Source of the DNA: a virus
Taxonomy: Duplodnaviria > Heunggongvirae > Uroviricota > Caudoviricetes
Direction: 5' to 3' (one strand)
IMG/VR virus record: IMGVR_UViG_2547132281_000002
Location: 1-25,592 of that record
DNA length: 25,592 bases
Below, piece after piece: positions 5,765 to 12,464 of the stretch (positions within the stretch are counted from its first letter, which is position 1; each line of letters starts with the position of its first letter). Position numbers and translations under genes: made by a program. The notes beneath the pieces are model-generated. The model did no database searches and was not told where the DNA came from. It saw only the letters and a list, made by a program, of their open reading frames with translations.

Positions 5765-6352
5765 AACCCCACCTCGCAGACAAAGCGGGTGTAAATTGAG
5801 GGAATACAACGTATCGCAAAAAAGCAGAAACGTAACAGACTCGGAGTCAGTGAATAACTCAGGTATTGAGTTATCAGCTAATATCGAGACTCAAAAAATG
5901 GAAAAACCAGCTCGACGGCGGGTTTAAGCTGTGTGACGAAGTAACCACTCTTAACAGCATAACCAATTTTTTACGTACGTAAACCACTGAATGATATTTA
6001 TGAGAATGCTACCGAGTGTTCAAAACTCCACCACAAATACATAAGAAAACCTCAACAAATAACCAATAAATAATTTCAGACGTTATTTTTAGTTGATTTA
6101 AATTAAACTGCCGAATTATAGAACCCCCATAAATAACAGCCATTAATATAAATTAGCTAATAGGTTTATTTTTGTTCAAATAAGAGCCATAAATAGGTTT
6201 CGATAGAAAAAGTTCAGATAAAAATAGAGATCTACTTCACAAATTAAATGAGAAACTAAAACTTACATCTTGAAATAATCACATTGATTAGATGAATATT
6301 TATCGCGCAGTGACATCATTTTTTAATAATAGTTCAAAAAAAAGGGCTCACG

Positions 6353-7435
6353 ATGAAAAAATTAACAGTGGCAATTTCTGCTGTAGCTGCATCAGTACTG
6401 ATGGCGATGTCTGCTCAGGCAGCTGAAATTTATAATAAAGACAGTAACAAGCTGGATCTGTACGGGAAAGTTAATGCTAAGCACTACTTCTCCTCTAATG
6501 ATGCAGATGATGGTGATACTACTTATGCCCGTCTTGGCTTCAAAGGTGAAACCCAAATCAACGATCAACTGACTGGTTTCGGTCAGTGGGAATATGAATT
6601 CAAAGGCAACCGCGCTGAATCTCAAGGTTCCTCCAAAGACAAAACCCGTCTTGCATTTGCAGGCCTGAAATTCGGTGACTACGGCTCAATCGATTACGGC
6701 CGTAACTACGGTGTAGCATACGACATCGGTGCGTGGACTGACGTTCTGCCAGAATTCGGTGGCGATACCTGGACCCAAACAGATGTATTCATGACTGGTC
6801 GCACCACAGGTGTTGCAACTTATCGTAACAACGACTTCTTTGGTCTGGTTGATGGCCTGAACTTTGCAGCTCAGTATCAGGGCAAAAATGACCGAAATGA
6901 AGTAACTGAAGCTAATGGCGATGGTTTCGGTTTCTCAACTACTTATGAGTATGAAGGATTCGGCGTGGGTGCAACCTATGCTAAATCTGATCGCACTAAT
7001 AATCAGGTTATCTACGGTAACAACGGTCTGAATGCTTCTGGTCAAAATGCTGAAGTATGGGCAGCTGGTCTGAAATATGATGCGAACAACATCTATCTGG
7101 CCACCACCTATTCTGAAACCCAGAACATGACTGTTTTTGGTAATAACCATATTGCCAACAAAGCACAAAACTTCGAAGCTGTTGCACAATATCAGTTCGA
7201 CTTCGGCCTGCGTCCATCCGTTGCTTACCTGCATTCTAAAGGAAAAGACTTGGGTGTTTGGGGTGATCAGGACCTGGTTGAATATGTTGATGTAGGTGCA
7301 ACCTATTACTTCAACAAAAATATGTCCACTTTTGTTGACTACAAAATCAACCTGATTGATAAGAGCGATTTCACGAAAGCATCTGGCGTTGCTACCGATG
7401 ATATCGTTGCTGTAGGTATGGTTTACCAGTTCTAA
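6353..7435 (+). CDS. nmpC: Outer-membrane general porin, NmpC/OmpD/Lc family, apparently intact, 360 aa
   Basis: [23 protein letters not shown] signal peptide, then [17 protein letters not shown]... and a C-terminal ...VAVGMVYQF. Lies between Q and the lysis genes on the opposite strand, as in DLP12. Confidence 0.85.
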
Positions 7436-8879: not shown

Positions 8880-9042
8880 GATTCCTCCTTGCTGCCAGTC
8901 GCAACCATTTTTTATCAACCAGGCTGGCGGTATATCCGAGCAGTGTTGGTATTTCGGAAGGCTTCAGCTCCGGTTTACGCTTACGACGATCTGGTACTCT
9001 GTAGATGTGTCCGTTCATGACACGAATAAGCGGTGTAGCCAT
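8872..9042 (-). CDS. ninE: NinE-like protein, 56 aa, below the ORF-track length cutoff
   Basis: Manual translation gives [56 protein letters not shown]. Start overlaps the ybcN stop (TAATG); stop overlaps the ybcO start. Confidence 0.6.
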   Translation of the reverse strand: MATPLIRVMNGHIYRVPDRRKRKPELKPSEIPTLLGYTASLVDKKWLRLAARRNHG

Positions 9043-9497
9043 TACGCCTCCTGCTTGTCGCGGAGCAGCTGGAACTCGCAGCTCTGCGGAATAGTCAGGT
9101 GGCAGCCAATATTCACCGCCCAGGCTTCAACCTTACACAGGAAGACATACATCTCTCCGGTATCAAGATCGGAGGTATGGCGTAACGACTGGATAGTGGT
9201 GATATCACCGGTTACGACATCAACCAGGTCTTTGGTTTCATAACCGAGATATGTGTGTTTGAGAGCATCTTTTACCCAAGCTGGAGTAGCGAACGTTTTA
9301 CCCCTGCTGATGAGGTATTCACTGATTTCGCTGTACCACATGTGGCTGAGTGCATTCTGGGAAAGACTGCGTTTCTCACGCCACGGTTTAAGCACCATGC
9401 GAAAGCATTTGCCCTCCTCCAGATAAGGCTGGATCTGCCGACCGATAGCGGTGAAGTTACCGCGATGTAATTTGATGCCATCTTGTGGGAGATTCAC
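9042..9497 (-). CDS. ybcN: NinB-family recombination protein (DLP12 YbcN-like), 151 aa
   Basis: [62 protein letters not shown]... matches YbcN from memory. Confidence 0.85.
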
Positions 9498-9684
9498 GCT
9501 TCACCTCCGCAGAGGTCAAACGCTGGATACAATATATCGCAGGTGCATTTCTGCATCTGTGGAGGGAGAAGAGAGTTTGGATTGTGTGTGCGCATAAACG
9601 TCCCCGTTTAGCGCAGAAGTCACCGGAGTTGTTCAGGCTCCGATGACATGATTATGGCGAGTTGATTATCGCAAATCAAAGGTT

Positions 9685-10041
9685 TTAATTGTGCTTTATT
9701 CCTTCAAGCGTTGCCTTCATACCAACCAAAGAAATGTTTAGCTCTCCAACTTTCTCAGGGCTATATAATTCAGAATGAAGCCAATATTCTGATTTATCTA
9801 AACATCTTTTAGCCAGCTCTCGATCAAAGTCTACGACTTGGGAAGACGCTTCATACCAAAGCCTATAAAGTTTTTCTTCTTCGTTTGGGTTATTAGGCTC
9901 ACCACGTTTTAATTTTTCAGTATATAAAATTGTTGAATAAATCGCAGGAGTTAATCCAGTGATTGCCCTCTGCCGCAGATCGGATTTGTTTGTTATCCAC
10001 CCCAACAGACGATCTCCCATCCATGTGATAATTGTATCCAT
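9685..10041 (-). CDS. Uncharacterised 118-aa protein, AT-rich cargo gene
   Basis: MDTIITWMGDRLLGWITNKSDLRQRAITGLTPAIYSTILYTEK.... An RBS-like AAGAAGGG lies 8 nt upstream. No family recognised; no predicted transmembrane segment. Confidence 0.55.
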   Translation of the reverse strand: MDTIITWMGDRLLGWITNKSDLRQRAITGLTPAIYSTILYTEKLKRGEPNNPNEEEKLYRLWYEASSQVVDFDRELAKRCLDKSEYWLHSELYSPEKVGELNISLVGMKATLEGIKHN

Positions 10042-10502
10042 GCTTTAGCCCTTCTTAGTAAATAGTGTGTAGGGCGACTGAAGGACCGAGTTTATGCTTT
10101 TTCGCATTGCTTTCAGTTAGTACACCGGTATCGCACCGGAAACAATCCTACGGCAAATTGGTTGTCTGACCTCTCGGTTTTTCGTGCATTAACCGATACC
10201 CACTACAGTCTCGGCGAAAGCTGCACACCCCCAGGGTGTACTGGTAGCACTCGGCACAGCCTAGCACGCCACTTTCTTCTCACTATCCAGTCTAATTTTA
10301 TCCCCTAGTCAGACACTCAGATGTAGTGCTCCGCAGCGGCATGCGGGGGAATACAAAAACTCGGACAAAATTGGGCCCTCCTTTTTGAATCACTCGCGGG
10401 GATGTAGTTATTAATACATGGAAAAAGATCTGTTTTCAAATCCAACATTATATGGTTTCAATACCACGGGGTGGCTATGTGTTTCTCATTGTTAATTGGA
10501 AT
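10042..10502 (-). other. ORF-free 460-bp segment between two same-strand genes; candidate long structured 5' leader or ncRNA
   Basis: No ORF of 60 codons or more in this interval in the supplied track, and only short ORFs found by manual reading. GC content is higher than in the flanking AT-rich genes. Several local hairpins (cacccUGGgggtg; ccggtGCGATaccgg; ucgguu...aaccga) and a sigma70-like promoter on the minus strand. Confidence 0.35.
10411..10439 (-). promoter_or_regulatory. Sigma70-like promoter (TTGAAA-N17-TATTAA) on the minus strand inside the ORF-free segment
   Basis: -35 TTGAAA at 10439-10434, 17-nt spacer, -10 TATTAA at 10416-10411. Predicted start near 10404, about 360 nt upstream of the 118-aa ORF. 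Confidence 0.3.
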
Positions 10503-10826
10503 CTACTGTAATCGATCCGAACGTAAATGCGGCAAAACTCGACTCCACTTATCATCCTGCCACGGCCGGAATTTTACATGTGCCGTTTCTCTGGCAAGGA
10601 TTGCCTGTGCCTTATTGAGTATCTGGGGATATTCTTGCTCGATAGAAGTGAAGCGACCAGCTTCACGATGCTCCGCAACCTGAAGAAGAGGAGTAACGTT
10701 CTGGTAGGTAATTAACATCACATTCCCTGCTCGCCATAACCAGGCGAGTGTGCAAAGTTCGTTATCAGTGAATTGTTTTGTGATTGGGTATTGTTGAACT
10801 GCTAGAACGAGAACGCCAGCATCCAT
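10503..10826 (-). CDS. Uncharacterised 107-aa protein
   Basis: MDAGVLVLAVQQYPITKQFTDNELCTLAWLWRAGNVMLITYQNVTPLLQVAEHREAGRFTSIEQEY.... No family recognised and the RBS is weak. Occupies the slot that holds ybcL/ybcM in DLP12. Confidence 0.45.
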   Translation of the reverse strand: MDAGVLVLAVQQYPITKQFTDNELCTLAWLWRAGNVMLITYQNVTPLLQVAEHREAGRFTSIEQEYPQILNKAQAILARETAHVKFRPWQDDKWSRVLPHLRSDRLQ

Positions 10827-10937
10827 TGGCAGTCTCTATAGTAAAACCATAGCTCAGGACGCTTCGTTCAGGATAGATAATTTTATTGTACTTACCTAAC
10901 TTTCTTACTATAGCACGGTTGAAAAAGTGATTATTAC

Positions 10938-12464
10938 TCAAAAATAAACCTCACCATCAACCATATATTTGAGAGTACTTATCGCCTGCTGGGCGGATAT
11001 TGTTTTCATTAAAGGATAGTGTTTAAAAACAATGCCATTCATAAAATAGATATCACAGGTTTTATTATCTGTATTGATTATGATTTTTTCGAATGTTTTA
11101 TAGGCAAGTGTACGACATAGCTCTCGCCCATTTTTACTGTTTAAGTCAATAGCATGAAAATCACCAAGTGAACTCACCGCTTTACTCTTCAAAGTTTTTA
11201 ATGATACAGAAGCCCTTCGTAATTCCTTATCTAATACTCTGATTTTTTCTGCTATAGCGGTAACTTCAGGCGCAACAGATAATGCAGCAATTAAATTATT
11301 AATTTTCATCTGGAGCTCAATAATTTTCAACTCTAAAGTTTCATTAGCATCTTTCTTGTTTTCAACTGGTTGGATTTTACTACAATTAAAAAGCAACTCA
11401 TTAATGATATTATAATCAACCAAATCTCTCTTTATTGATGGCCTGTCACATCGATGCAGTCTTCTCATCGGACAAACATAATAGCCATGCAAACTTCCAG
11501 ATACCGCATGAACAATCATGGTATTACCACAAGCCTCGCACTTCATAACTGTTCGAAGTAGATTTATCAACATAGGATTTTTGCTACTATTGCTAATACC
11601 AAAAGGTGCCAACCGAATTTCCTGTACAGCGTAAAACAAATCATCTGATATGACTCTGGGATAATAGCCAGCGATTTCACTTATTCCTTTACCTCTTGCA
11701 CGATATGAAGGTACGCATATACCTATCAGAGCTTTATTCGCTAATAATTTTTCAATTACAGAAGGTCCCCATGCACTTTCTTTTCCTGAGAAATTCTTTA
11801 CAGCATGATCATTTAAATACTTGGCTATTGCATTCAATGAGCGCCTTTCCATCCTGAGTTTAAAAATTAGCTCAATAGTTTTCACCCTGTCGGGGTCTGG
11901 AACAAAAGCCGTTCTTTTGTCATCTAAGGAGAGCCATCTCGGACAAGACGCCGTCATAATCGTACCTGATTCCAGTGCATCCTGCCGTTTTTTCTTCCAT
12001 GATAATTTAACCCGACTTGACTTTATCTCGCTTTCTTCATTTGCCCTTTGTGCTATAAGTATGGCTTTTATTAATGAATATGGCTCATTCAAAGAGTCAA
12101 TATTATAGACTGTATTGTCGCAAAGAGTTATAACATCAATACCGTGATTCAAAATCAATTTCAGACGTTCAATCGCTTCACCGACTTTTTCTCTTGAAAG
12201 TCTGTCCAGACTTTCAACTAACAATGTAGTTCCTGGCAATATATAACCATGCTCTATAGCATCTAAAAATTCCGAAAAAGCTCCTGATTGTGCATGCTTT
12301 CCTTTGAATGCACTTAATCCTAAATCTTCATATGTTATGGTATCAAGATAATAATCACTATTTACCTTTAACCATTCAGCAATAAGTCTTCTCTGTCGGT
12401 TTAATGAGTCGCCAGACATCTGACCTGGTGATGAAAATCGCATATATGCTATGGCTTTTTTCAT
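10938..12464 (-). CDS. ybcK: Large serine recombinase (DLP12 YbcK-like), 508 aa
   Basis: N-terminal resolvase-like MKKAIAYMRFSSPGQMSGDSLNRQRRLIAEW... with catalytic Ser in the YxRxSS context. Central recombinase region, a Cys-rich zinc-ribbon-like stretch (CEACGN...CPMRRLHRC) and a coiled-coil tail. Strongly AT-rich. Confidence 0.85.
   Translation of the reverse strand: MKKAIAYMRFSSPGQMSGDSLNRQRRLIAEWLKVNSDYYLDTITYEDLGLSAFKGKHAQSGAFSEFLDAIEHGYILPGTTLLVESLDRLSREKVGEAIERLKLILNHGIDVITLCDNTVYNIDSLNEPYSLIKAILIAQRANEESEIKSSRVKLSWKKKRQDALESGTIMTASCPRWLSLDDKRTAFVPDPDRVKTIELIFKLRMERRSLNAIAKYLNDHAVKNFSGKESAWGPSVIEKLLANKALIGICVPSYRARGKGISEIAGYYPRVISDDLFYAVQEIRLAPFGISNSSKNPMLINLLRTVMKCEACGNTMIVHAVSGSLHGYYVCPMRRLHRCDRPSIKRDLVDYNIINELLFNCSKIQPVENKKDANETLELKIIELQMKINNLIAALSVAPEVTAIAEKIRVLDKELRRASVSLKTLKSKAVSSLGDFHAIDLNSKNGRELCRTLAYKTFEKIIINTDNKTCDIYFMNGIVFKHYPLMKTISAQQAISTLKYMVDGEVYF

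Follow-up and report, generated by a model that had tools for sequence, protein, structure and literature searches.

Comparative evidence for a structured RNA in the accessory slot between ybcK and the nin genes of a DLP12-like prophage

The interval between the serine recombinase gene ybcK and the nin genes of a DLP12-like lambdoid prophage of Escherichia coli (IMG/VR virus record IMGVR_UViG_2547132281_000002, positions 1 to 25,592; here referred to as the window, i.e., the whole 25,592-nucleotide (nt) stretch of DNA that was analysed) appears to contain a conserved structured RNA of 333 nt, which is predicted to run on the minus strand from 10403 to 10071. The RNA lies within a 461-bp gap (10042-10502) between two minus-strand open reading frames (ORFs), one encoding a protein of 118 amino acids (aa; 9685-10041) and one of 107 aa (10503-10826). 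In a preliminary description of this interval (9498-10937), both ORFs were placed correctly, and RefSeq annotates the two of them in identical copies of the block. They were, however, taken to be two small cargo proteins of unrecognised type, with nothing but spacer in between. The comparative evidence points instead to the RNA as the principal element of the slot. The reading preferred here, to which a probability of roughly 0.6 is assigned, is that of an autonomous RNA moron expressed in the lysogen, which is accompanied by a gene remnant and by a 118-aa passenger gene within a recombination mosaic.

Comparative evidence for the RNA

The 461-bp gap has 78% identity to a region of Klebsiella phage Kp4856-1 that carries no annotation. 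Along this comparison, invariant blocks alternate with blocks that change in a complementary manner, and an intrinsic terminator then follows in the Klebsiella phage. For an alignment of the RNA, RNAalifold predicted 82 base pairs in two domains, namely a 5' domain closed by the helix AUCCCC/GGGGAU (10403-10398/10305-10300, minus strand) and a multi-branched 3' domain closed by a long-range helix (10292-10287/10081-10076, minus strand). Changes on both sides, i.e., compensatory changes, occur at 14 of the 82 pairs, and the best-supported hairpin is helix 12 (10215-10207/10200-10192, minus strand), in which 6 of the 9 pairs covary with up to five pair types per position. Overall, 98.5% of the alignment cells at predicted pairs form standard pairs, versus 93.1% in column shuffles and 34-48% when the partners are slid by 1-3 columns. 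Cells changed on both sides number 107, versus 43 in shuffles and 5-16 with slid partners. Neither of the two observed values was reached in any of 500 shuffles, and the same holds for the covariation score.

The strand and the non-coding nature of the element were assessed from the same alignment. It contains 197 G-U cells, and pairing amounts to 98.5% on the minus strand versus 87.1% on the opposite one, which identifies the folded strand as the one transcribed with the phage early operon. A hidden protein-coding gene in the gap was considered and rejected: no reading frame is open in all RNA lineages, insertions and deletions of 1-2 nt separate the lineages, and there is no third-position bias or 3-base periodicity (variable columns 43/40/47 by codon phase). 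Between lineages in which 70% of the synonymous sites differ in the adjacent 118-aa gene, the RNA still retains 80% identity, which shows that the RNA sequence is itself under selection. GUCUGAC (about 10314-10308) and GUCAGAC (about 10170-10164), two invariant heptamers, are mutually complementary and could form a pseudoknot, for which their very invariance rules out support from covariation. These data show the RNA to be conserved, base-paired, and non-coding on the minus strand, and no other part of the block is as conserved or as widely distributed, although the preliminary description had assumed an empty spacer here.

Exact-pattern scans with five independent anchors retrieved the same ~62-64 IMG/VR loci each time, and a pattern scan of metagenomes yielded 27 further loci with 6 new sequence variants. 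From IMG/VR, metagenomes and genomes, the family amounts to ~30 distinct sequences in ~15 lineages, which are 77-82% identical to the window RNA or nearly identical to it. A single copy is present in each of 158 out of 5426 complete E. coli genomes (~3%), with no RefSeq feature beneath it, and among 50,697 phage records four isolated, plaque-forming phages carry the RNA, i.e., Turner, IdasGreatGrand, and two Klebsiella phages. It was also found in Obesumbacterium proteus and in an assembly carrying a protein that NCBI assigns to Enterobacter bugandensis. Plasmid records contained no match, and a scan of species-representative genomes for relatives returned chance matches only, in GC-rich genomes. 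Rfam 15 gave no match to the RNA, be it at the gathering threshold in the whole window, at E<=1 in 9400-11000, or at E<=10 in 10040-10460.

Some public annotations cross the RNA. In phages Turner and IdasGreatGrand, coding sequences (CDSs) for 'hypothetical proteins' of 39 and 43 aa lie inside it (L003:5651-5770 and 5820-5951, corresponding to window positions 10148-10267 and 10317-10448). They are not conserved as ORFs in other lineages and are probably annotation artefacts. Furthermore, the public gene calls P0009 and P0014 have N-terminal extensions that are translated from the RNA.

Apparent autonomy and possible roles of the RNA

The RNA is preceded by a putative promoter block (10411-10458, minus strand) with the -35 element TTGAAA (10439-10434), a 17-nt spacer, and the -10 element TATTAA (10416-10411), from which transcription is predicted to start near A10403. 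Conservation in ~15 lineages extends from about -55 to +1, and further upstream the sequence is unrelated between lineages. The -35 element reads TTGAAA, TTGAAT or TTGTAT across lineages, the spacer is 17-18 nt long and differs in sequence, and the -10 element reads TATTAA, TTTAAT or TTAAAT, 7-8 nt before AUCCCC; a sigma-70-like promoter of the RNA is predicted from this pattern. In most lineages, a GC-rich hairpin followed by a T-run, i.e., an intrinsic terminator, is found within ~10 nt of the last RNA helix, and in lineage L056 the terminator stem is of different sequence at the same position. The window lineage, L059, L064, and the Obesumbacterium and Enterobacter loci lack a terminator, and in them 29-33 nt separate the RNA from the start of the 118-aa ORF. 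In the window, the spacer from the RNA 3' end to the ATG of this gene (10042-10070, minus strand, 29 nt) contains the ribosome-binding site AAGAAGGG where most other lineages have the terminator.

The genes on either side of the RNA vary. At least four families occur upstream (a Bro-N/P22_AR_C gene, a VasI-like secreted protein, a dATP/dGTP pyrophosphohydrolase, or a 273-aa protein) and at least five downstream (the 118-aa gene, a 191-aa protein with hydrophobic termini, a 183-aa protein, a 95-aa protein, or DUF1367). Among the alternative genes downstream of the RNA, C5-C7 had no PADLOC match. The RNA is always co-oriented with the early operon, and it moves between phages independently of both neighbours. 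In the concept of Hendrix and co-workers, a moron is a promoter, gene, and terminator inserted between conserved phage genes. The RNA resembles the morons of lambdoid phages in being a self-contained unit between the replication and nin genes, with a promoter-like block, mostly its own terminator, and varied neighbours. At the sequence level, both the conservation of these signals and the variety of neighbours are seen, with the terminator absent in the window lineage. It differs from them in that a 333-nt structured RNA would take the place of the protein-coding ORF, and expression in the lysogen is here only proposed.

A sequence of events that would produce the present arrangement may be proposed. 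The arrival of the ybcK-emrE module would have separated a Bro-N/P22_AR_C gene from its 5' half and left the 107-codon remnant behind. A self-contained RNA gene, comprising the sigma-70-type promoter and the 333-nt two-domain RNA, would have been inserted between conserved phage genes, and the RNA would be made from its own promoter in the lysogen. The stable folded RNA would then act in trans by binding a conserved host or phage component. In the window lineage, which has no terminator, the RNA would share a transcript with the 118-aa gene, a passenger that is frequent yet dispensable, and the conserved nin genes ylcH and ybcN come last in the transcription order of the block. A role in trans is favoured because the RNA is autonomous from both neighbours, persists where the downstream gene has decayed, and contains long unpaired stretches that never vary, as would be expected if a conserved partner recognises them.

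Several points weigh against this proposal. The folding energy of the single sequence is unremarkable (z = -0.73), such that the case for the RNA rests on comparative evidence, and since the family members are all at least 77% identical and many helices never vary, covariation backs only part of the structure. The promoter lies outside the strict rules of a consensus promoter scan, and the promoter as well as the 5' and 3' ends of the RNA are placed from sequence alone. The 107-codon remnant retains an ATG and a complete P22_AR_C domain, so that it may have a residual function or give a domain-only product. In several genera the RNA and the 118-aa gene are closely linked, and this may reflect joint action of the two rather than a passenger role of the gene. 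Lastly, the layout of promoter, RNA, terminator, and ORF suits a cis-acting leader equally well. Such a riboswitch- or attenuator-like leader would gate terminator read-through into the accessory gene, and possibly into the nin and Q genes, which is the main rival and a possibility to be taken seriously, if an improbable one. It would fit with the ORF and its ribosome-binding site following the terminator by 11-51 nt in most lineages with no obvious promoter of its own, with the three lineages in which the terminator is missing and the 118-aa ORF directly follows the RNA, and with the constant co-orientation with the early operon. Unlike for riboswitches, however, the genes found downstream fall into five or more families that are unrelated to each other. 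Moreover, inspection revealed no anti-terminator in which the RNA would pair consistently with the terminator arms, the spacer between the RNA and these arms is not conserved, the window lacks a terminator, the RNA is intact where the 118-aa gene has decayed, and 333 nt is large for a leader.

Joint action would make the RNA and the 118-aa protein a two-part system, either a ribonucleoprotein or an RNA-regulated effector, that serves in phage-host or phage-phage conflict. All homologues of the protein with at least 69% identity and checked context (in Escherichia, Obesumbacterium, and Enterobacter) have the RNA upstream, ~30 nt before the start codon, one remote relative of the protein is fused to a TIR domain, and phage PhiR26_1 has in the same slot, on the opposite strand, a gene annotated as the defence gene PD-lambda-1. 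Nevertheless, the link does not seem to be obligatory: many RNA lineages have no 118-aa gene, 51%-identical homologues have no RNA, and the protein family occurs without it in L074-L076 and L126 (in L126 the AT-rich upstream gap, which was inspected by eye and not aligned, showed no RNA motifs). In ~26 loci a frameshift has shortened the 118-aa gene to 60-66 codons, next to an RNA that is 98-99% intact. The protein is also slightly acidic by residue count, has no PADLOC match, and gave generic fold matches only, and a two-part system is thus considered quite unlikely. An even smaller probability is given to the original proposal that the two proteins are functional cargo for exclusion, toxin/antitoxin or anti-defence functions and that the gap is a spacer. 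The RefSeq annotation of both ORFs, purifying selection on the 118-aa gene, and the location in a known accessory-gene site agree with it. In turn, one of the ORFs is a 5'-truncated Bro-N/P22_AR_C gene, the supposed spacer is the most conserved and most widespread part of the block and has compensatory base-pair changes, and no direct support for any of the three functions was obtained, i.e., no PADLOC match for either protein, no tandem repeats, and generic fold matches. The truncation evidence and the covariation of the RNA largely refute the two-protein proposal.

Other identities of the RNA were examined and rejected. Short 9-mers are common to the RNA and ssrA, but an alignment score of 20 versus a shuffle mean of 18.3 (standard deviation 2.3) argues against derivation from transfer-messenger RNA, and ARAGORN detected no tRNA- or tmRNA-like feature in it. 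The invariant loop AGAGGUCAGAC has 11 nt of complementarity to the ylcH/ybcN junction, as for an antisense regulator of ybcN; this role was rejected, as phages that lack the RNA have the target just as well, and Klebsiella and Enterobacter phages that carry the RNA do not have it. With regard to antisense action on other phages, no match at E<=10 was found in the 50,697 phage records beyond the four RNA carriers. A type III toxin-antitoxin system of the ToxIN kind was rejected as well, as the RNA has neither tandem nor direct repeats inside it, and the 118-aa protein has no Pfam or PADLOC match.

Flanking reading frames and the exchanged segment

The 118-aa protein (9685-10041, minus strand) belongs to an uncharacterised family of phages and mobile elements (phrog_12412/28881) and matches phrog_12412 with E=4.9e-71. 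In comparison with its homologue in L059, the gene has a nonsynonymous divergence (dN) of 0.185 and a synonymous divergence (dS) of ~2.0, and the resulting dN/dS of ~0.09 means strong purifying selection, which indicates a real gene. Its model is a helical bundle with a predicted local distance difference test (pLDDT) score of 94.8. The protein has no match in Pfam, PADLOC or NCBIfam, a fold search returned only generic matches, none of them informative, and the protein does not qualify as a histidine phosphotransfer (HPt) or CheA P1 domain, the mark of which is a four-helix bundle with a conserved phospho-accepting histidine. Among 5.8 billion proteins, close homologues form only 21 clusters, all from Enterobacterales, mostly of exactly 118 aa and with 51-99% identity. 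A profile search of 1.84 billion representatives added 351 remote relatives at E<=0.001, most of them 120-135 aa long, in which W62 and W87 are invariant. Among 139 remote relatives examined, all match phrog_12412 and 98 match phrog_28881, both function-unassigned families, no Pfam domain lies in the region of the 118-aa family, and each PADLOC match is confined to one member. The TIR-type matches belong to P0073, a 309-aa protein from the representative library with the 118-aa-family domain at its N-terminus and a TIR domain (PF13676, E=3.8e-18) at its C-terminus. This fusion is the sole hint at a function for the family, and the 118-aa protein is otherwise an orphan helical protein. The family also occurs, without the RNA, in the early-left region of other prophages. 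In L076 (55-656), for example, a 51%-identical homologue overlaps the end of a DNA_pol3_theta (HolE/Hot-like) gene by 4 nt, near an excisionase-like gene and an integrase gene.

The 107-codon ORF (10503-10826, minus strand) can be recognised, in contrast to what was described before: it matches Pfam P22_AR_C (PF10548) with E=1.1e-15, with residues 15-85 aligned to profile positions 3-73 of 73, and its PHROG matches are to the C-terminal ends of 'anti-repressor Ant' families (PHROG 245/377). RefSeq likewise names it after its P22_AR_C/antirepressor match. Of the two proteins, a confident match to a phage function, in this case a regulatory phage family, was hence found for the 107-aa ORF and not for the 118-aa one. 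The ORF aligns to residues 96-202 of intact 202-aa proteins that phages IdasGreatGrand (83% identity) and PhiR26_1 (78%) have at the same place and that carry Bro-N plus P22_AR_C; intact versions of 222-249 aa exist at other loci, and Bro-N covers residues 17-100 in the intact relatives of 202 and of 222-249 aa. Only the P22_AR_C half remains in the window. The ORF thus shares the complete P22_AR_C domain with the P22 Ant and BRO-family proteins, and differs from them in lacking the N-terminal Bro-N (~95 residues) and the full length of ~200-250 aa, i.e., it is a fragment and not a member with the full architecture. PADLOC-DB 2.0 contained no match for the 118-aa, 107-aa or ylcH products.

At the DNA level, homology to the intact genes breaks off at 10813, which is 13 nt into the ORF. 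Its first ~13 codons, including the ATG, derive from a junction segment of ~85 bp (10814-10898), which has no clear relative except in loci with the same ybcK junction. Together with 10899-10937, which is common with K-12 downstream of ybcK, this segment makes up the junction between the ybcK module and the truncated gene (10814-10937, minus strand). Every 107-codon locus with enough flanking sequence adjoins ybcK, and intact genes of 202-249 codons stand in the same place in phages without ybcK. This pattern indicates that the recombination that placed the ybcK-emrE module removed the Bro-N half, and the ORF is probably a non-functional pseudogene fragment. A perfect 9-bp inverted repeat (CTATAGTAA/TTACTATAG; 10836-10844/10905-10913, 60 nt between the arms) straddles 10899, the point at which K-12 homology downstream of ybcK stops; it may be due to chance or may be a recombination site of YbcK.

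The early-right genes of the window are on the minus strand, in the order replication genes O/P, ren, emrE, ylcJ, ybcK (10938-12464), the interval under study, ylcH (9494-9595), ybcN (9042-9497), ninE, ybcO, rusA, ylcG, and quuD. The corresponding order in the DLP12 prophage of K-12 is ybcK-ybcL-ybcM-ylcH-ybcN. By pairwise BLAST, K-12 homology from ybcK ends at 10899 and restarts at 9680, which puts the segment that was truly exchanged at 9681-10898. Of the three genes that had been listed as replaced, only ybcL and ybcM are therefore gone, whereas ylcH (minus strand, 33 aa, RefSeq CDS WP_072130332.1) is still present, with 27 of 33 residues identical to the K-12 protein. This gene, whose ORF overlaps the start of ybcN, is kept from a nin region of the DLP12/phage 82 type and is homologous to orf33 of phage 82. 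Upstream of it is a conserved intergenic stretch (9596-9684, minus strand) with a putative promoter of the phage 82 type, TTGATT-17-CATAAT, at 9679-9651. The phage 82 record X92588 annotates -35 and -10 elements and a 'possible regulator-binding site' for this promoter-like site.

The slot is variable, as had been proposed for this accessory insertion point. In 93 complete E. coli genomes, the 1.6-kb stretch with the window-type block is found at 99% identity or more, and 94 of 5426 have it with at least 80% query coverage, versus 673 of 5426 with the K-12 type (ybcL-ybcM); the flanks occur in thousands. The strains EC93, FORC_041, and NCTC9699 are among the E. coli carriers of the block. The PD-lambda-1 gene of PhiR26_1 is a further occupant. 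Phage Turner has the block plus ybcK and emrE, and phage IdasGreatGrand has the block without ybcK. The suggestion of separate acquisition, which had been made from base composition, also holds: GC contents are 0.381 for the 118-aa ORF, 0.469 for the 107-aa ORF, 0.511 for the RNA, and 0.359 for ybcK, and neither the breakpoints nor the neighbours in other phages are the same for the 107-aa piece, the RNA, and the 118-aa gene. The interval is accordingly better described as an apparent recombination mosaic than as a pair of cargo proteins.

Some further observations concern the surroundings. Turner (PP925837.1; L003 6441-8556), which was deposited as a complete 48-kb genome, has an emrE/qacE-type multidrug efflux gene and ybcK between ren and the nin genes, as in the window, and the DLP12-type emrE-ybcK module thus occurs in the genome of a phage isolate. 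A second copy of the ylcH/orf33 segment (~100-140 bp) lies upstream of the Bro-N gene in IdasGreatGrand (L004:7024-7161) and PhiR26_1 (L005:5949-6052). These copies are 82-87% identical in comparison with window positions 9518-9654, and the window has no upstream copy. The accessory block in these two phages is thereby bracketed by direct repeats, which could mediate gain or loss of the cassette via homologous recombination. Elsewhere in the window, a porin gene of the nmpC/ompC type (360 aa, 6353-7435, plus strand) is intact and not interrupted by IS5 as it is in K-12 DLP12, and IS009 (RF02111; 160-358, minus strand, 229.5 bits, full length) is the sole Rfam match at the gathering threshold.

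Relation to other prophage RNAs

Large structured RNAs associated with prophages include ROOL and GOLLD, which are Rfam families and have been studied by cryo-electron microscopy (bioRxiv 10.1101/2024.12.08.627333). As in these, the RNA described here is prophage-borne and non-coding, with a predicted complex multi-helix fold, long conserved unpaired stretches, and no function assigned. It is much smaller (333 nt), is restricted to lambdoid prophages of Enterobacterales, and matches no model of Rfam 15 at E<=10. Small RNAs are also known from E. coli prophages, e.g., DicF, IpeX in DLP12, and the anti-sRNAs AgvB and AsxR (PMC4104026). The RNA has in common with them that they are non-coding genes with a rho-independent terminator at accessory positions in lambdoid prophages; however, they are ~50-170 nt long and act by short seed pairing, whereas the window RNA measures 333 nt and has a conserved multi-domain fold. 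No description of the RNA was found in Rfam or in the literature searched, the coverage of which was incomplete, such that an earlier description is possible. The RNA is rated as belonging among the orphan structured RNAs carried by prophages.

More speculatively, the RNA may represent a new class of complex-folded bacterial RNA, an autonomous RNA moron of Enterobacterales lambdoid prophages that would work as a sensor or effector in phage-host or phage-phage conflict, a proposal in which little confidence is placed at present. It might gate interchangeable downstream effectors (the 118-aa family with its TIR-fused relative, a protein with two transmembrane segments, and others) upon an infection signal, or alternatively sequester a conserved host or phage factor. 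RNAs that are large and structured and contain long unpaired stretches without variation are as a rule ribozymes, binders of ligands or proteins, or assemblies, and to our knowledge it is rare for a new one to turn up in an E. coli phage amenable to genetics. By themselves, the 107-aa fragment and the orphan helical protein are of no more than ordinary interest. What merits attention is the RNA, as a well-supported structured RNA that is outside Rfam, unannotated, and present in tractable E. coli phages, and it suggests that accessory 'moron' slots can carry RNA genes that are overlooked by protein-centred annotation.

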